From an uncultured Clostridia bacterium (GTDB lineage: Bacteria; Bacillota_I; Bacilli_A; RF39; UBA660): 64,000 bases of DNA. Below, piece after piece: positions 7,760 to 47,742 of this stretch. The notes beneath the pieces were generated by a model. That model was not told the origin of the DNA. It ran no database searches and saw only the letters and a list, made by a program, of their open reading frames with translations. The first letter of the stretch is position 1; each line of letters begins with the position of its first letter. Made by a program: the position numbers and the translations under genes. The stretch spans positions 95,086 to 159,085 of the forward strand of contig CAOJDX010000001.1 of NCBI GenBank assembly GCA_948433435.1, read 5' to 3'.

Positions 7760-8203
7760 TTATCTAGTACGATTTACACTTTTTTCATTTCTGATATAAA
7801 ACAATTCTGTTTGTTTTTTTTGAGCCTCTTTTTGAAGAAACTTAAGTTCTATAGCCATTTTTTCTAATTCTTTCTTTTTTAGATATTTCCGATAGTCCTT
7901 TTTTATCATATCCTTAAATTTTTGAATTTCAGTTAAAACCTCATTCATTGTTGTTCCTGGATCTTCTTCACTTATAAAAAGATCTGTTAATTTTTTTATT
8001 AGCTTTTGATATTTTTTTAATACTATTTTTGAAACAAATGGTGAAGCAAATTTTTTATTTATGATGATAATCTTAGTAATATTATTTCCATCTATTATAA
8101 ATTTATTTGATTTAGTTGGTAAAAGGAAACCTTCTATTGTTGAATAATTTAATATTTTGGTTTCTTTCTTTTCTTTTTTTACTATATATTTCATCTTTGT
8201 CAT
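7760..8203 (-). CDS. hypothetical lysine-rich protein
   Basis: 147 aa. It overlaps the trmD stop by 4 nt and lies between trmD and rplS. Confidence 0.4.
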   Translation of the reverse strand: MTKMKYIVKKEKKETKILNYSTIEGFLLPTKSNKFIIDGNNITKIIIINKKFASPFVSKIVLKKYQKLIKKLTDLFISEEDPGTTMNEVLTEIQKFKDMIKKDYRKYLKKKELEKMAIELKFLQKEAQKKQTELFYIRNEKSVNRTR

Positions 8204-9436: not shown

Positions 9437-10183
9437 CTATCTTCCTAACTCATATAAAAGAATCGATGTTGCAATTGCAACGTTTAGGCTTTCGACGTTG
9501 GCATTTAAGTTAATATATAAATTTTTGTCACACATATTACTAATGGAATTTCTCACTCCATTTCCTTCATTTCCAACTACCAAAGCATATCTTATTTTAT
9601 CCTTTTCTGCTAAGCTTCTGACATCACTTCCATGACCTACCAAAGTACCATAAACCGGAATTTCTTCTTGGTGAAGCTGTTCTATAGTGCTTTCTAAATC
9701 TTTTTTTATAATATTAATATGAAAAAACATTCCTTGAGTTGCTCGTATCGTTTTTGGATTATATAAATCTACAGTATTTTCTGATAGAACGATTGTATCA
9801 ATATTAAAAGCAACTGCACTGCGAATAATTGTTCCTAAATTCCCAGGATCCTGAATATTATCTATCAAAAGAATCTTATTCTTTAATTCTTCTTTTTCTT
9901 CCTGTTTATGACACAAAGCCATAATTGTTTGCGGTGTTTCTACAGTCGATATTTTAGTAATAATTTCCATTGGAAGATAGACAATATTTTTAATATCCAA
10001 TGGGAATACTTCCTCTTTTTCTAAAATTAATTCATCGATTAGTCCATTTTTGTAAGCTTCTAATACTAAGTGAGCTCCTTCTACAATGAATTGTCCTGTT
10101 TTATCACGATATTTCTTATCTTTTAATTTTATATATTTTCTCACTTTATCATTTTCTAAACTTGTTATTAGCATAATACTCAT
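9437..10183 (-). CDS. TrmH/SpoU family RNA 2'-O-methyltransferase
   Basis: It has the SpoU MTase core (IDNIQDPGNLGTIIRSA, ALVVGNEGNG). Confidence 0.75.
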   Translation of the reverse strand: MSIMLITSLENDKVRKYIKLKDKKYRDKTGQFIVEGAHLVLEAYKNGLIDELILEKEEVFPLDIKNIVYLPMEIITKISTVETPQTIMALCHKQEEKEELKNKILLIDNIQDPGNLGTIIRSAVAFNIDTIVLSENTVDLYNPKTIRATQGMFFHINIIKKDLESTIEQLHQEEIPVYGTLVGHGSDVRSLAEKDKIRYALVVGNEGNGVRNSISNMCDKNLYINLNANVESLNVAIATSILLYELGR

Positions 10184-40610: not shown

Positions 40611-40644
40611 AAAGAAAAAAAGTAATAAACAAGAATGTTTATTA
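40611..40644 (-). terminator. hairpin and T-run after pilD
   Basis: TAATAAACA-TTCT-TGTTTATTA followed by a T-run on the minus strand. It overlaps the pilD stop. Confidence 0.45.
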
Positions 40645-41406
40645 CAAACCAAGAAAGTGTAGAAAGTCAAGAGTAGTAATTTTACTGAAAAAAAGTATAG
40701 CAAAAGCAATGATTAAAAAAGGCCCAAACGGAATCATATGTTCTTTGTTGGTAAGTAAAATAATAATTGCTATAGGCAAGGCAATGAGACTACCAATAAA
40801 GATCGTTAAAACTCCTAAAAGAGGTTCTAGCACTAAGCCAAAAACAAATAATATTTTTACATCACCTCCACCTAAACTCTCCTTTTTAAACATTTTTTCT
40901 CCTAACCACATAATAAAATACATGAGTGAAAACAAAAAGAGTCCTGTCACAATATGGGTACATGTAGCATTAAATCCTTTGTTTAAAAACTGAATTATCA
41001 TAAAGTAAAAAATAAAGAAAACAATTACTTCATCTGGAATAATATAATAAGTTAAATCGGTTACTAGAACAATCATTAAAATAGAAACTACTCCTAGAGC
41101 TATTAAAAGATTATAACTAAAACCAAAGCTGTAATAGCAAACAGAAAATAAAAGGCCTGTTATTAACTCTAATAAGGGCAACATAATCGGAATTTTTTCT
41201 TGGCAGTATCGACATCTCCCTAAATTTAATAAATAGGATAAGATAGGAATCATGTCATAAAACTTCAACCTCTTTTTACAACTATTACAATGCGAGTGAC
41301 TAGTTGTAAAATTTTCTTTTTTGGGAAGACGTTCTCCGATTACTGCAAAAAAGGAACCACAAACACTTCCTAAAATAAAAAAGAAAATTATATACAAAGT
41401 ATTCAT
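40642..41406 (-). CDS. pilD: prepilin peptidase (A24 family)
   Basis: It has an N-terminal CxxC...CxxC zinc knuckle (CNSCKKR...CRYCQEK) and polytopic membrane topology. Confidence 0.85.
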   Translation of the reverse strand: MNTLYIIFFFILGSVCGSFFAVIGERLPKKENFTTSHSHCNSCKKRLKFYDMIPILSYLLNLGRCRYCQEKIPIMLPLLELITGLLFSVCYYSFGFSYNLLIALGVVSILMIVLVTDLTYYIIPDEVIVFFIFYFMIIQFLNKGFNATCTHIVTGLFLFSLMYFIMWLGEKMFKKESLGGGDVKILFVFGLVLEPLLGVLTIFIGSLIALPIAIIILLTNKEHMIPFGPFLIIAFAILFFSKITTLDFLHFLGL

Positions 41407-41418
41407 AAAAATTCTCCT

Positions 41419-43257
41419 TTATTGTATTTGACTATATATATCAAACATTGGGGTCACAATAGATAGTAAAATCACACCAACTATGGCAGCTACTACTAAA
41501 ATCATAGCTGGTTCAATTAAACTTTTCATTTGATCTACCAATGATTTATGAAGTTGTTGATAATGTTGAGAAACTTTTTCCATCATCAGTCCTAATTGTC
41601 CTGTATTTTCTCCTGTTACTAACATATGATAAGCTACTGTAGGAAATGCCCAAACTCCTTTAAAAGAATTAGAAATACTCTCTCCTTTTGCTAGATTGGA
41701 CATAGTATGGGCAATAATTTCTTTATAAATTTCATTATTAGTAATTTGAGAAAGAATTTCCATACTATCTGTAATGAAAACACCATGATTAATTAAGGAA
41801 GAAAAAGTCTTAGTAAAGTTGTAGACTTCATTATAAATGACTATTTTCCCAAATCCAGGCAATTTCATTACTACTAATTGAACTGTTTTTCTAAAGGGCA
41901 TAATCTTTTTATAACACAAAAAGAAAGTAATAATAAAGATAATCATTCCTAGGATAATATAAACATAATATTTCCTCATAAAATTGGAGGCCTCAATAAC
42001 AGCTAGAGTTATTCCTGGAAGTGATGCTCCATTTGTCTCATACAAAGTGACAAATTGTGGAACAAGTTCAAGCAACATAAATACTAATACACCAATTGCC
42101 AAAATTAAAACGATAACTGGATAAGTCATAGCACTTTGCATAGCTTTTCTTGTTTGAATGATATCCTCATAGTAATCTGACATATCATCTAAAATTGTCG
42201 GAAGATCTCCTGTCATTTCAGCTGATTTTATCATACTAATTAAAAGTTTAGGAAAAGCTTTTCCTTGTTTTTCCATTGCTGTACTTAAATTATATCCTTT
42301 TAAAAGATCATATACTAATTTTTCGTAGGCATTCTTACTAGCTGCTGATCTAGCTTGCTTTGCCAGTATAGTGACTCCCTCTACTAGAGGAATACCAGCT
42401 TTAATATAAGTTGATAATTGTGTTAAATCAAAAGCCAAATCAGTGACTTTTACTTTTTTATCTAAAATAATCTCTATATCGTATTGTTTCCTAGGTTCTA
42501 CAACAATTTTAGTATATCCTTGAGCTTCTAAAAAGCGTTTACAATCTTCCATGCTCTCTGCATTAAAAAAACCTTTTGTTTTCTTACCATTTTCCATAAT
42601 AGCACGATATTTAAAAGGAAATAATGCTATTGCATCCTTGGTTGAAGTAGCTTGCTGTGACCCTACTCCTTTTAGATTATCCGTTGCGACTTGATCCAAG
42701 GTAATTTCTTCTTTTGGTTCTTTCTTTTTAAATAATTTACTTAAAAAACCCTTTTTTTTGACTTTGGCATATTTTCTTACAATATTTGTCAGTCTTCTCG
42801 AAAGATTATTATTTACCTCTCCTATACTAATTTCATTAATAATATCAGCAGGAATAACATTCCCAAGTTTTTTCATGGCATTGGTTAAAGAATCACCTTT
42901 ATATATAAAGTAAGCTAATCTAAAGTATATGCTTTTATTGGAACTTTTACATTCTTTTCCTATTCGAATGATGCTTTCTAAGGTAGATGAACCATATCTG
43001 ATATAATTAGCTAAATTTCCAAACTCTACTCCTATACTAGTCATATCCAACTTTTTATTTAGGTTAGGAACCCCTTCACCTTGTTTTAGAGGAATAACAT
43101 TGGCATTTTTGTAACCAATCATATCTAAAAAAAGTCTACATTCCTCCAAACTTTCTGCTATAAAAAAATCATTTACTTGCCTATTTTTTTCATCAAGAGC
43201 GCTATATTTAAATATATATAACGTAACTGAGTTATTATTCATGTTAAACACTCCCAA
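41419..43257 (-). CDS. pilC: type II secretion / type IV pilus platform protein (GspF/PilC family)
   Basis: 612 aa with two T2SF repeats and 3 TM segments. Confidence 0.8.
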   Translation of the reverse strand: MGVFNMNNNSVTLYIFKYSALDEKNRQVNDFFIAESLEECRLFLDMIGYKNANVIPLKQGEGVPNLNKKLDMTSIGVEFGNLANYIRYGSSTLESIIRIGKECKSSNKSIYFRLAYFIYKGDSLTNAMKKLGNVIPADIINEISIGEVNNNLSRRLTNIVRKYAKVKKKGFLSKLFKKKEPKEEITLDQVATDNLKGVGSQQATSTKDAIALFPFKYRAIMENGKKTKGFFNAESMEDCKRFLEAQGYTKIVVEPRKQYDIEIILDKKVKVTDLAFDLTQLSTYIKAGIPLVEGVTILAKQARSAASKNAYEKLVYDLLKGYNLSTAMEKQGKAFPKLLISMIKSAEMTGDLPTILDDMSDYYEDIIQTRKAMQSAMTYPVIVLILAIGVLVFMLLELVPQFVTLYETNGASLPGITLAVIEASNFMRKYYVYIILGMIIFIITFFLCYKKIMPFRKTVQLVVMKLPGFGKIVIYNEVYNFTKTFSSLINHGVFITDSMEILSQITNNEIYKEIIAHTMSNLAKGESISNSFKGVWAFPTVAYHMLVTGENTGQLGLMMEKVSQHYQQLHKSLVDQMKSLIEPAMILVVAAIVGVILLSIVTPMFDIYSQIQ

Positions 43258-43350: not shown

Positions 43351-43680
43351 ATGTACAATAATCCTTTTATGTATGGACCTTATATGTCCAATTTGGCAAG
43401 ACCCGCTGTCTCTAGAGGACTATTAGGGGGATTAAAAAGTATGAATTGGGGTGGCCTTCTTTCCAATGCTCAAAAAACCTTAGGGGTTATTAATCAAACA
43501 ATTCCTATCGTTTATCAAGTAAAACCAATGATTAACAATGCCAGAACCATGTTTAAAATAGCTAATACATTAAAAGAAGATAAACCAGTAACAAATATTC
43601 CTAATAATAATATTCAAGAAACTGTTCCTAGTCAAAGTAGTTCTATTGAGGATAGTGGAAAACCTATATTTTTTATTTAA
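43351..43680 (+). CDS. YqfQ/VrrA-like protein
   Basis: The segment GLLSNAQKTLGVINQTIPIVYQVKPMINNARTMFKIANTL and the ...KPIFFI terminus resemble B. subtilis YqfQ. Confidence 0.5.
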   Translation: MYNNPFMYGPYMSNLARPAVSRGLLGGLKSMNWGGLLSNAQKTLGVINQTIPIVYQVKPMINNARTMFKIANTLKEDKPVTNIPNNNIQETVPSQSSSIEDSGKPIFFI

Positions 43681-43729: not shown

Positions 43730-45112
43730 TTAATAATTTATATTGGATTTAGGAATCTCTATTACTGGTCGAAAATCACATAGGCCATTTTTAATCGACT
43801 TGAAGGCAAAAAGGGCCTTGTCACTTTCATAGTACATACCTAGATGCCAAACTTCTGCATCACTATTACTTTTTATAGTTTCTAGCCAATAACCTGAAGA
43901 ATTTACTGCAAATATTGTATTTTCAAATAAAAATGTACATGAGGAGTGATTAAACCATGTTGTTGGATCTCCTTCTTGAATATTACAATGTTCTATTTCT
44001 TGATGTGTCAATAATCTTACTGGACTATCATAAGTAAATTGATTATTAATAATAACTCCATTTTCATCCTTTATAACCCTATCCTTGTTTTTCAGTTTTA
44101 TATTAGTCCATTTTTTACTATATCCAAGCAATTCACTTTGGTACATAAAATTTGATGGACCATCAGTATTTTTATAAGTTAAATTCCAAGGAATTACTAC
44201 AAATTCTGTTCCACGGAAATTTTTACTATGAATCATTACAGCTGTATCATGACTTTCTTCTAAATCTGTTACATAATAAAATCTTTCAGTTTCACTATCA
44301 TAAATACCATCACCATTTACGTCGCAATCAAAAGCATCACCACTTGTTAGTATTCCTTTTGTTCCCAAATTGCCATATGTTATTATTGATGTTCCCTTTG
44401 AACCTGTTGTTGTGTATCCAACATCTGCACAGATTTGATTTTCTCCACACTCCTCTGTATGCAAGATAGTCGCTCTTCTACAAACCTCTTTAGGAGGTTC
44501 TGGTTCTTCGATATCACCTTCTTTACCATAAACATTGACTCTTACAGTAAAGCTTTTGGATTCACTACTTAATTCATAACTTGAATCTACCCACATTCTT
44601 AATCGGTAATAATAGGTTACTTTCTCACTAATACTTCCTACATCCATGACCATTTCTCCTGCTTTTGCTCCAAACTCATCATCAACATCTAATGGTGTAT
44701 AGGGACTTGGTTCTAATACTTCATCATTATAATTGGTACCATCCAAAGACTTTTGTAAATACAATCTAACATCTTCATTGCCCATAGTTGATGAGGAATC
44801 TTTTACCGCTGTTACTTCATAAGAAATGGGCATCTTTGGTCCTGTTTTAATATTAATCGTAAAATCAAAGACGTAGTTTTCATCACTTAATGTCTTCCCG
44901 ACTTCTTCTGTTATTGGGACTGCATTGTTAATGCTTATTTGATTATCCCCTTCTGTATAGATCATGGTAACAGCACTCGTTGTGATCGCATTTTCTGTTA
45001 CACCTGTTTTACTAAAAGTAAAGGCGGCATAACTTACTCCCACAATCATCACTACTAATAATAAAACTAAACCTACTGTGATTATTTCTTTATTTTTCTT
45101 CTTTTCTTCCAT
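43730..45112 (-). CDS. secreted or membrane-anchored Cys-rich protein of unknown function
   Basis: 460 aa with an N-terminal TM/signal anchor and a Cys-containing extracellular region. It has its own promoter containing a G9 tract. Confidence 0.5.
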   Translation of the reverse strand: MEEKKKNKEIITVGLVLLLVVMIVGVSYAAFTFSKTGVTENAITTSAVTMIYTEGDNQISINNAVPITEEVGKTLSDENYVFDFTINIKTGPKMPISYEVTAVKDSSSTMGNEDVRLYLQKSLDGTNYNDEVLEPSPYTPLDVDDEFGAKAGEMVMDVGSISEKVTYYYRLRMWVDSSYELSSESKSFTVRVNVYGKEGDIEEPEPPKEVCRRATILHTEECGENQICADVGYTTTGSKGTSIITYGNLGTKGILTSGDAFDCDVNGDGIYDSETERFYYVTDLEESHDTAVMIHSKNFRGTEFVVIPWNLTYKNTDGPSNFMYQSELLGYSKKWTNIKLKNKDRVIKDENGVIINNQFTYDSPVRLLTHQEIEHCNIQEGDPTTWFNHSSCTFLFENTIFAVNSSGYWLETIKSNSDAEVWHLGMYYESDKALFAFKSIKNGLCDFRPVIEIPKSNINY

Positions 45113-45145: not shown

Positions 45146-45175
45146 ATTCTACCCCCCCCCAGGTCATTTTGTCAA
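45146..45175 (-). promoter_or_regulatory. sigma-70-type promoter with a poly-G(9) tract in the 18-nt spacer (candidate phase-variation switch)
   Basis: The minus strand reads TTGACA-aaatgacctGGGGGGGGG-TAGAAT. An AAGGAG RBS lies 7 nt before the ATG at 45112. Confidence 0.5.
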
Positions 45176-45232
45176 AGGGGTATTTAATTACCTACTAAAA
45201 ACATAGAATTTTAGGTATTTACTTATAATAGA

Positions 45233-45272
45233 ATAAAGAAAAAATAAAAGGACCACTTCCTGTAAATTACAG
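45233..45272 (-). terminator. hairpin and T-run separating the 55-aa ORF from the surface-protein promoter
   Basis: CCTGT-AAATT-ACAGG followed by a T-rich run on the minus strand. Confidence 0.35.
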
Positions 45273-45341: not shown

Positions 45342-45509
45342 CTATTCAAATTCTTCTAATGAATATGCTACTTTATAGGCCATATCTTTAGCCATATTTT
45401 TCATATCATGCATTGCATTAGGGTTTTTCTTTTTATACATCATCCATGCACTAACTCCCATTCCTGCAACTGCTAAAGCTCCAATTGCCATTTTACCTTT
45501 ATTTTTCAT
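45342..45509 (-). CDS. small membrane protein (55 aa) MKNKGKMAIGALAVAGMGVSAWMMYKKKNPNAMHDMKNMAKDMAYKVAYSLEEFE
   Basis: It has a GAGGTG RBS and one TM helix. It is below the ORF-track length cutoff. Confidence 0.3.
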   Translation of the reverse strand: MKNKGKMAIGALAVAGMGVSAWMMYKKKNPNAMHDMKNMAKDMAYKVAYSLEEFE

Positions 45510-45543: not shown

Positions 45544-47742
45544 TTATTTTATACCATCAATTAAAAAATCTTTAATACTTGTTCTTCTAATATCATTTAC
45601 TTTATTATTAATAGAAAGATCAAAAGCAGACATTTCCCCTATTAAAAACAATTTTTTCTTACATCTAGTAACGGCTGTATAAATAAGTCTTCGATAAAGC
45701 ATTTTATGAAAACTCTTAACAATAGGTAAGATGACCACATCAAACTCACTACCTTGTGCTTTATGAATAGATATGGCATAAGCCTTTTTGAAATTTAGAA
45801 AGTTAGTTGGGGTGTATTTTACTATATTACCATCAAAATCAATATATACTTCTTTTTTAGGTTTAGTCACAATCTTAGTAATAATTCCGATATCTCCATT
45901 ATAAACATTATCATCAGGCATATTGGTTAATTGAAGAACCTTATCTTGTTCACGATATAATTCTTCTCCTATTAATATTTCCTTTTTCGTGCTACTTTTT
46001 TTATTAAATACTTCTTGTAAATGAATATTAATGTTATCAATTCCATTAATTGTTTTGTACATAGGTGCTAAAATTTGAAAATCTTTATAGGAATAATCTA
46101 AGTAAGTTTTGCTAATTTCGTTGATTTTTTCCATAACATCATTCCCATTGCATTCGATAAAAGTTAAGTCTGCCTCTTTATTGAAAAGAGATTTTTCTAT
46201 TTCACCTTTTTTGATATCATAAGCAAGACTGATAATATTAGAACCTTCTTTTTGACGATACAAAGTATTTAATCTGCAAACATTTAATTTTTCACTATGG
46301 ATAAGATCTGCTAAAACTTGACCTGCCCCAACACTAGGAAGTTGATCTACATCACCAACTAAAATTATTTTAGTGTGAACACTCAAACCTTTCAATAAAT
46401 TACTAAATAGATAAGTATCAAGCATGCTGGCCTCATCAATCAGAACAAATTCTACACAACTTCTATTATATTCATTAACTTGAAATTTATTCGTATCTTT
46501 ATTCCATTTTAAAAAGCGATGAATAGTAGAACTTGGCAAGTTTGTAGCCTCACTCATTCTCTTAGCAGCTCTGCCTGTGGGTGCTAAAAGAGCAATTTTT
46601 TCTCGCAATTTTTCGTAATCTAATTGATTTGTATCTTTATAAAGCTCACATATAGCTCGCATAATTGTTGTCTTACCTGTTCCAGGTCCACCTGTAATAA
46701 TTAAAAAATTTTTCAAACAACTATTTTTTATTGCTTCTTCTTGATCAAGACTATAGTCTATTTGAAAGTAATCTTCTAATTTTTTAATATAGTGATCAAT
46801 ATCCTTAATTTTATTATCTTCTATATGTTGTAAAATATTTATACGATTTACAATTAGGCATTCACTATCATACATTTCCTTTAAATAAAACTTATCTTCT
46901 ATTTTAACTATTCTAATATCTTTTATTAATGCCTCGATTGCTTGTTGGAATAAATCAGTAGGAATTTCTTGTCCTAGAACTCTAGGGAGTAAAGAATAAA
47001 TTTCTTCTAAATAATAATAACTATGTCCATAACTATTACTAACCTCATTGATTATATAAATAATTGCGGCTTTTACTCTATTAGGATGATCTTTGGGTAA
47101 TTCATTATGAAGAGCAATATAATCTATTCTTTTAAATGAAAACTTATCGATATCATAAATAATTGTATAAAGATCATTTTCTATTACTTCCAAACTTCTA
47201 GAACGATATTTATTATAAATAAGCATTGCTTCTTTAGTGTTGAAGCCCAAATCCCCAAGTTTAATCACAATATCGTAACTTTCTTCGTAATCTATTAATT
47301 TATCATGTAAGTTACTAATATCCTTTGCTGTAATACCTGGTATTAATACTAGATTGTTAGGATTAGTAAGAATAGTATTTAATGTATCTTTTCCTAAAAC
47401 ATCAACAATTTTTTTTGCTTTGCCTTCCCCAATTCCTTTAAAAAGACCACTACTTAAGAATTCTACAATAGCATCTTTACTTTCTGGTTTACATCTTTCA
47501 TATCCTTCAGTTTGAAACTGCATACCATATTTACTATGCTCTATCATTTTTCCATTAAAAATATAAGTATCCATATCATTAAGCTCATGAAAATAACCTG
47601 TAAAAGTAACTGTTTTACCTACAAAATCTTCTAAATCATCACTACTACTTTCCACTTTGAAAAGACCGATAACGTAACCAGAACTAGCTTGGTAAATATT
47701 CCTTTTATATTTTCCTTTAATAAAACTAATCATTAACTTCAC
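45544..47742 (-). CDS. recD2: ATP-dependent RecD-like DNA helicase
   Basis: 732 aa with a SF1B Walker A (GGPGTGKTT) and a C-terminal SH3-like region. Confidence 0.85.
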   Translation of the reverse strand: MKLMISFIKGKYKRNIYQASSGYVIGLFKVESSSDDLEDFVGKTVTFTGYFHELNDMDTYIFNGKMIEHSKYGMQFQTEGYERCKPESKDAIVEFLSSGLFKGIGEGKAKKIVDVLGKDTLNTILTNPNNLVLIPGITAKDISNLHDKLIDYEESYDIVIKLGDLGFNTKEAMLIYNKYRSRSLEVIENDLYTIIYDIDKFSFKRIDYIALHNELPKDHPNRVKAAIIYIINEVSNSYGHSYYYLEEIYSLLPRVLGQEIPTDLFQQAIEALIKDIRIVKIEDKFYLKEMYDSECLIVNRINILQHIEDNKIKDIDHYIKKLEDYFQIDYSLDQEEAIKNSCLKNFLIITGGPGTGKTTIMRAICELYKDTNQLDYEKLREKIALLAPTGRAAKRMSEATNLPSSTIHRFLKWNKDTNKFQVNEYNRSCVEFVLIDEASMLDTYLFSNLLKGLSVHTKIILVGDVDQLPSVGAGQVLADLIHSEKLNVCRLNTLYRQKEGSNIISLAYDIKKGEIEKSLFNKEADLTFIECNGNDVMEKINEISKTYLDYSYKDFQILAPMYKTINGIDNINIHLQEVFNKKSSTKKEILIGEELYREQDKVLQLTNMPDDNVYNGDIGIITKIVTKPKKEVYIDFDGNIVKYTPTNFLNFKKAYAISIHKAQGSEFDVVILPIVKSFHKMLYRRLIYTAVTRCKKKLFLIGEMSAFDLSINNKVNDIRRTSIKDFLIDGIK

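Follow-up and report, generated by a model that had tools for sequence, protein, structure and literature searches.

A 64-kb stretch of contig CAOJDX010000001.1, from an uncultured bacterium of the RF39 lineage, carries a gene for a 460-amino-acid protein of predicted export whose promoter contains a run of nine guanines (G9) in the spacer between its -35 and -10 hexamers. We call the whole stretch the window and number positions along it; the promoter, the tract and the 460-amino-acid gene all lie on its minus strand.

A G9 tract in a promoter spacer

Read directly on the minus strand, the order of elements is cccctTTGACA-aaatgacct-GGGGGGGGG-TAGAATagaaatataaagatagaataAAGGAGtaaaagtATG. The parts of the promoter and of the gene that follows it are these:

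45176-45201, minus strand: AT-rich upstream part of the promoter cassette, tttttagtaggtaattaaatacccct, conserved with loci L082/L083 and partly with L080
45175-45170, minus strand: -35 hexamer TTGACA (sequence reading, promoter scan)
45169-45161, minus strand: non-repetitive half of the spacer, aaatgacct = AAATGACCT (sequence reading)
45160-45152, minus strand: G9 homopolymer GGGGGGGGG (C9 on the plus strand), candidate slippage tract
45151-45146, minus strand: -10 hexamer TAGAAT (sequence reading, promoter scan)
45125-45120, minus strand: ribosome-binding site AAGGAG, 7 nt before the ATG at 45112
44516-45112, minus strand: codons 1-199, signal or anchor peptide and N-terminal beta-sandwich domain, belonging to a 690-bp cassette
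43730-44515, minus strand: codons 200-460 and stop, linker and C-terminal domain with seven Cys (predicted local distance difference test, pLDDT, ~90)

The tract abuts the -10 box and accounts for half of the 18-nt spacer. In a consensus scan this was the top-ranked promoter-like site between 43000 and 46000, agreeing with the consensus at 11 of its 12 positions with the spacer at 18 nt, and the scan returned no other minus-strand promoter-like site in the intergenic region. The initial annotation of this DNA had described a near-consensus promoter with G9 inside an 18-nt spacer, and an AAGGAG site ahead of the ATG of the 460-amino-acid open reading frame (ORF); all of these elements are present as described. 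The two hexamers probably constitute an active promoter, and the AT-rich segment upstream may be an UP-like element.

We also confirmed that the tract is far from a chance occurrence, as had been proposed from the AT-richness of the genome. It is the only G or C homopolymer of at least 7 nt in the window, where the next longest is 6 nt and the G+C (GC) content is ~27% overall and 24-32% along the length. A zero-order model predicts 0.0003-0.004 G9/C9 runs for the window, and a first-order model 0.003-0.01. Nine uninterrupted bases also lie within the repeat length taken to allow slippage, which for a G/C run is about 7-8 or more. Two other readings of the region were rejected. A competence cin-box at the -10 region is a poor match by eye (GTAGAATA against TACGAATA, which we take to be the cin-box consensus) and is unshared by the related modules described below, and a G-quadruplex is ruled out in that a lone G9 run is unable to form an intramolecular quadruplex.

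The 460-amino-acid protein begins MEEKKKNKEIITVGLVLLLVVMIVGVSYA/AFTF, with charged residues followed by hydrophobic ones and then by the small-residue motif SYA/AF, and structure prediction places a helix at residues 8-25, succeeded by beta strands. Residues ~1-29 are thus a putative Sec-type signal or anchor. There is no lipobox, the first Cys being residue 211. The earlier description of a secreted, Cys-rich protein holds for its length and its export-type N terminus, but needs tempering as to Cys content, which is only moderate (seven in total, all within residues 211-445).

The two halves of the protein have separate relatives. Residues 1-199 are 80-87% identical to the corresponding parts of the proteins P0003, P0004, P0006 and P0011, whose C-terminal parts are unrelated. 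From residue ~210 to residue 460 the protein consists of a domain that is found in hundreds of proteins and whose homologues end in GVRPxIEVxKxNIxY; elsewhere some of these homologues are fused to type IV pilin N_methyl N termini (P0110 and the loci L038 and L067). This C-terminal domain gives weak matches to DUF6273. The 460-amino-acid protein had no significant match in Pfam or NCBIfam and no match in a profile search against PDB sequences, and Foldseek returned generic beta-sandwich matches only. Type IV pilin identity was ruled out for the protein itself, which has no N_methyl motif (PF07963/TIGR02532) and instead a hydrophobic leader before SYA/AF. It is probably an exported, modular protein of the adhesin or fibre kind that would be displayed at the surface.

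Cassette copies and related modules

The tract recurs, with other lengths, at other genomic sites. Comparison by blastn and alignment of the contigs that carry the closest relatives of the N-terminal domain revealed a cassette of ~690 bp, corresponding to window positions 45201-44515 and comprising the promoter, the 5' untranslated region (5'UTR) and codons 1-199. Its identity to the window by blastn is 92% in L080, 90% in L081 and 80% in L082/L083. Near codon 199 the similarity breaks off abruptly, and the C-terminal domains beyond are unrelated. The cassette follows tgt in L080, a recombinase in L081 and rplM-rpsI in L082/L083, and none of these neighbourhoods is the recD2-pilC site of the window. 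The copies differ in their promoters as follows:

Window: -35 TTGACA, tract G9, spacer 18 nt
L080: -35 TTGACA, tract G10, spacer 19 nt
L081: -35 replaced, tract G12, no spacer
L082/L083: -35 TTGATA, tract G5AG5, spacer 20 nt

L082 and L083 come from two independent samples and are base-for-base identical. The TAGAAT -10 box is the same in five of five aligned copies, the 5'UTR is almost invariant, and the non-repetitive half of the spacer, aaatgacct in the window, reads aaattacct, aaaaagcct or aaagccttct in related modules. The initial annotation had suggested looking for homologues with tracts of other lengths, and these were found (G9, G10, G12 and G5AG5); the repeat number varies across cassette copies and related genomes, rather than among isolates of one strain at one locus. 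The arrangement suggests cassette-type shuffling of promoter, leader and N-terminal domain.

Poly-G is not universal in the family, because the promoters of P0008, P0009 and P0135 are without it. L084 and L091 share the cassette from the 5'UTR onward only and have a different promoter with no G run, and in L085-L090, which represent a more distant relative, the family gene stands in an operon without a G run. Exact-protein look-ups for P0011, P0010, P0126 and P0123 gave no contig on record, and blastn against plasmid and phage collections gave no match.

Several features of individual copies deserve separate mention. Many of the database relatives are short fragments on ~1-kb contigs, and assemblies may break at the multi-copy block. 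In L081 (1-3962), the resemblance to the cassette breaks off precisely at the 5' end of the G12 tract; upstream of it are genes for a large serine recombinase (Resolvase and Zn_ribbon_recom domains), which ends ~45 nt away, a sortase and a type IV secretion system (T4SS) coupling protein. It looks as though an integrative conjugative element has either entered the -35 half of this promoter or taken its place. The P0135 gene (L085-L090; for example L085 1453-1500) has an in-frame TAG inside the signal peptide, MNEKNKKVFLILVFY*VIVLIIGVTYAAF, ~50 nt upstream of the called GTG start, and the called protein is without its full leader. The gene is on 13 contigs, and the TAG is identical in all six of the independent assemblies shown; it could be a nonsense OFF allele, or be subject to read-through or recoding.

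The same promoter layout occurs beyond the cassette. The protein family is abundant in gut metagenome-assembled genomes (MAGs) labelled Bacilli, Tenericutes, Clostridium sp. CAG:433, Mycoplasma sp. CAG:877 and Coprobacillus sp. CAG:605. No GTDB representative belongs to the species of the window, the best match among them having 42% identity. A scan of these representatives supplied 771 kb of loci, and the sequence compared came to 906 kb in all; the loci were chosen for containing family genes and not as an unbiased genome survey. Within the 771 kb there are five runs of G or C of at least 7 nt, all of them G on the strand of the family gene, and long uninterrupted G runs are otherwise absent from the compared genomes (24-31% GC). 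The modules, with downstream-gene domains assigned by Pfam and NCBIfam, are:

L067: TTGACA-aaaaagcct-G9-TATACT, spacer 18 nt; pilin-like protein with a Gp10_C domain, in a locus with pilB and minor pilins
L060: TTGACA-aaagccttct-G10-ATACT, spacer ~19 nt; member of the C-terminal domain family
L009: TTGACG-agagcctctt-GGAGGGAGGGGGG-TATACT, spacer 23 nt; paralogue of the L060 gene in the same MAG
L038: TTGACA-taaaggcta-G6-TATACT, spacer 15 nt; N_methyl pilin carrying the C-terminal domain
L012: G9-TATAAT; signal peptide and Gp10_C
L077: GGAGGGGGG-TATAAT; DUF6273-type protein
L018: TTTACA-N9-GGAGGGGG-TATAAT, spacer 17 nt; DUF6273-type protein, paralogue in the same MAG as L077

Across cassette copies and modules the -35 hexamer is TTGACA in L080, L067, L060 and L038, TTGATA in L082/L083 and TTGACG in L009. 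In the 906 kb there are 21 G runs of at least 6 nt, and 9 of them lie directly against a -10-like hexamer, about 40-50 nt ahead of a gene whose product has an export or pilin leader. Six of the eight runs of G7 or longer fall within promoter spacers. Pure tracts are 6, 9, 9, 9, 10, 10 and 12 nt long, interrupted versions occur too, and spacers span 15-23 nt. Origin of the composite motif by chance at such base composition is essentially impossible. In the sampled loci of one MAG, CAKPCA01, G runs of 6 nt or more number at least three.

Three further observations concern these loci. The C-terminal domain of the phage baseplate protein Gp10 (PF21939) occurs in leader-bearing proteins encoded at L067 2067-2696 and L012 167-955 (E values 3e-16 and 2e-23), and the L067 gene sits inside a type IV pilus locus; a domain resembling those of phage receptor-binding proteins is apparently displayed by the bacterium. 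A short ORF of L058 (ATG...ATT AGG GGG GGG GCT TGA) contains, 15 codons in, a G9 run at 7919-7927, ~30 nt from where the contig ends; the reading frame closes right after the run, which may be an intragenic frameshift-type switch in the OFF state. In L026 the Shine-Dalgarno position is taken up by a G7 run (9593-9599; caaatGGGGGGGataaaaATG), which lies downstream of an ordinary TTGACT-17-TATAAT promoter, a placement unlike that of the spacer tracts.

Transcription unit and neighbouring genes

The surroundings of the 460-amino-acid gene are made up of the following features:

45544-47742: recD2, upstream
45342-45509: 55-amino-acid ORF, between recD2 and the upstream hairpin
~45285-45233, minus strand: upstream hairpin and U-run resembling an intrinsic terminator (RNA folding free energy -18.7 kcal/mol, z -2.95), followed by UUUAUUUUUU
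43730-45112, minus strand: ORF of the 460-amino-acid exported protein
43718-43679, both strands: downstream bidirectional terminator hairpin (-16.9 kcal/mol, z -4.66), with an A-run on one side and a U-run on the other
43351-43680, plus strand: convergent yqfQ-like gene
41419-43257, minus strand: pilC/gspF, with its own promoter-like site
40642-41406, minus strand: prepilin peptidase gene

The upstream hairpin was detected by RNA folding and is unlisted by a simple terminator scan. It is predicted to end the transcript of recD2 and the 55-amino-acid ORF and so to insulate the promoter; a hairpin and T-run also precede the cassette copies in L080 and L082. An insulating terminator at 45233..45272 had been claimed in the initial annotation. 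Its hairpin and U-run are indeed there, but follow the 55-amino-acid ORF and not recD2 directly, and the further assertion that the gene is 'controlled solely through this spacer' exceeds the evidence. Because predicted terminator hairpins flank it, the 460-amino-acid gene appears to be monocistronic and insulated on both sides.

The gene adjoins a type IV pilus gene pair (pilC/gspF and the prepilin peptidase gene) without belonging to it. An operon with pilC/pilD was ruled out, as the convergent yqfQ-like gene and the bidirectional terminator lie between. The PilC/GspF homologue has 612 amino acids, ~200 above the usual PilC length, and its N-terminal extension duplicates the cytoplasmic segment (FKYSALDEKNRQVNDFFIAESLEECRLFLDMIGY and FKYRAIMENGKKTKGFFNAESMEDCKRFLEAQGY). 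Neither a pilB ATPase gene beside it nor, anywhere in the 64-kb window, a prepilin-leader motif was found.

Proposed phase variation, its alternatives and known systems

We hypothesize that the G9 tract is a slippage switch for phase variation, a reading that the observations partly support and to which we assign a probability of about 0.6. The tract would act as a hypermutable simple-sequence repeat in the spacer of the one promoter, of sigma-A/sigma-70 type, that serves a monocistronic gene. Slipped-strand mispairing at replication would add or remove G residues and so set the distance between the -35 and -10 hexamers at 17 nt with G8, 18 nt with G9 (the state in the assembly) and 19 nt with G10. 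Promoter strength would shift with this spacing, moving expression up, down or off in a stochastic manner that is reversible in each lineage, and tract length would drift by slippage, at times being frozen by a point interruption. Sigma-A-type promoters tolerate spacers of 17±1 nt. The best spacing would come with G8, and weak or no activity is expected from G10 upwards; the 18-nt spacer of G9 falls within 17±1 nt, and the assembly has therefore probably captured the promoter in an ON or intermediate state.

The spread of pure tract lengths, the spread of spacers over 15-23 nt, the interrupted tracts and the confinement of long G runs to the spacer position in very AT-rich genomes fit slippage drift with occasional freezing. 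Of the phase-variation switch put forward in the initial annotation, then, the anatomy and the tract polymorphism between copies were found, whereas switching itself is something that we infer from them. Slippage within one population would be frequent, and tract length would alter transcription.

A number of observations weigh against a switch. The tract differences lie between paralogous or relocated copies that also differ by 8-20% substitutions. Between the window and L080 there are four other single-base insertions or deletions (indels), all non-coding and most at short runs; the tract is therefore not uniquely indel-prone in this comparison. The canonical spacing of 17 nt is not reached with any uninterrupted tract. 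Coverage of related contigs is as low as ~5x (L080) and ~12x (L081), so their tract lengths could hold consensus errors of ±1 base. Neither the window protein nor the identical database entry P0001 could be placed on a contig by exact-protein look-up, JGI metagenomes gave no match to the -10/5'UTR pattern or the N-terminal domain protein, and IMG/VR gave no match to two patterns.

The main rival, which we judge unlikely but deserving of weight, holds that the G tract is a fixed promoter element, either a rigid A-form-like spacer or the binding site of a shared regulator, with no high-frequency switching; the length differences between copies would then reflect slow divergence of paralogues, some of whose promoters are dead. 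The motif TTGACA-aaa.gcct-Gn-TAnAnT is conserved across genes and MAGs, with G always on the sense strand, and could thus be a recognized sequence; the indels at other short runs of the cassette and the identity of the interrupted G5AG5 copy in two samples point the same way. A binding or structural element should, however, hold its length, yet spacer lengths vary between 15 and 23 nt and pure tracts between G6 and G12. The absence of other long uninterrupted G runs from these genomes of 24-31% GC also speaks against it, as does the intrinsic instability of mononucleotide G runs of at least 8 in bacteria studied so far (PMC6321876, PMC5953494).

We give little credence to a role of the tract mainly as a marker of a recombination or integration hotspot, at which promoter modules are swapped or an integrative element attaches. 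This explanation draws on L081, where homology stops at the 5' edge of the tract beside recombinase, T4SS and sortase genes, and on L084 and L091, whose homology starts only downstream of the -10 box, so that the promoter part appears exchangeable. It predicts a TTGACAaaatgacct half-site at the far end of the L081 element. Only a single element junction was seen, however, the remaining copies keep the arrangement of -35, spacer and -10 intact, and a junction role leaves the recurrent exact placement against the -10 hexamer unexplained. An artefact of sequencing or assembly, in the run itself or in its length, is very improbable: homopolymers are error-prone and the L080 and L081 contigs have the low coverage given above, but independent assemblies, made from different samples and in different studies, have the tract in the same place, it lies mid-contig on long contigs, and L082 and L083 agree base for base.

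The switch may also be part of something wider. Tentatively, and at somewhat less than even odds, TTGACA-aaa.gcct-Gn-TAnAnT would be a lineage-wide portable module, spanning MAGs labelled Bacilli, Tenericutes, CAG:433, CAG:877 and CAG:605. It would head stand-alone genes whose products are type IV pilins, TasA-like or adhesin-like proteins, and exported proteins of phage-baseplate-like (Gp10_C) type, each gene switching independently, and give combinatorial surface variation together with shuffling through the 690-bp cassette.

Full-text literature searches turned up no account of phase variation for this lineage, a group of uncultured AT-rich gut Bacilli. Slippage in a promoter spacer is a textbook mechanism, and the locus is therefore a new example of an established switch type; its value lies in the taxon, the recurrence across genes and the architecture of the cassette. 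The recurrent, apparently portable poly-G promoter module, combined with cassette-style shuffling of the N-terminal domain, adds to this interest. If the tract switches, it would mean repeat-driven phase variation of pili or surface fibres in an abundant, never-cultured gut lineage. A G run of at least 6 nt abutting a -10 box would then be a signature with which to catalogue contingency loci in MAGs, the downstream modular proteins would be flagged as likely to be exposed to host, phage or immune system, and assemblies of such genomes would represent mixed ON/OFF populations.

Promoter-spacer phase variation is established for the poly-G tract of porA and the TA repeats of hifA/B (PMC3899988), and these appear to be the closest functional analogues. 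In Neisseria meningitidis porA (poly-G) and opc (poly-C), as here, a G/C tract lies between the -35 and -10 elements of a surface-protein gene, and one-base changes in the tract alter spacing and transcript level (PMC3899988). The host here differs in being an AT-rich, Gram-positive-type gut commensal known only from metagenomes, and the tract directly abuts the -10 box, in a promoter that belongs to a portable cassette common to several genes and known from sequence alone.

Haemophilus influenzae hifA/hifB resemble the related modules in that a spacer repeat controls a pilus or fimbrial gene (PMC3899988); here, modules precede type IV pilin genes in L038 and L067. The repeat there is a dinucleotide in a bidirectional promoter, whereas here it is a mononucleotide run in a unidirectional one. 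A likeness to the poly-G phasomes of Campylobacter and Helicobacter lies in AT-rich genomes where rare, strongly non-random G/C runs of 7-8 or more mark contingency loci, several per genome (PMC6321876). Most tracts in Campylobacter are intragenic frameshift switches, in contrast to the six of eight G7-or-longer runs placed in promoter spacers here.

In family architecture, the closest analogue appears to be the Mycoplasma hyorhinis vlp system. Citti and Wise reportedly described, in 1995, a conserved 5' block of the vlp genes. The family studied here is built in a vlp-like way, with a conserved 5' block (promoter, homopolymer and signal sequence) and divergent C-terminal parts. Poly-A in M. 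hyorhinis vlp promoters and TA repeats in the M. mycoides vmm spacer are established cases of the mechanism, and shared with them are a multigene family, one transcription unit per gene and a low-GC host related to Bacilli/Mollicutes (PMC10502178). The differences are that the tract here is poly-G and that of vlp poly-A, that the product is not a lipoprotein (no lipobox Cys, and no Cys before residue 211), that the C-terminal parts are folded domains and not tandem repeats, and that the copies are scattered and not clustered. No tandem-repeat region was noticed in the protein alignment, in which no dedicated repeat search was run. Membership in the Mycoplasma Vlp-type lipoprotein family is ruled out by the missing lipobox, and the likeness is one of promoter logic and family architecture. 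If the lineage-wide module is real, the Mycoplasma Vlp system would have in it a counterpart among cell-walled commensals.
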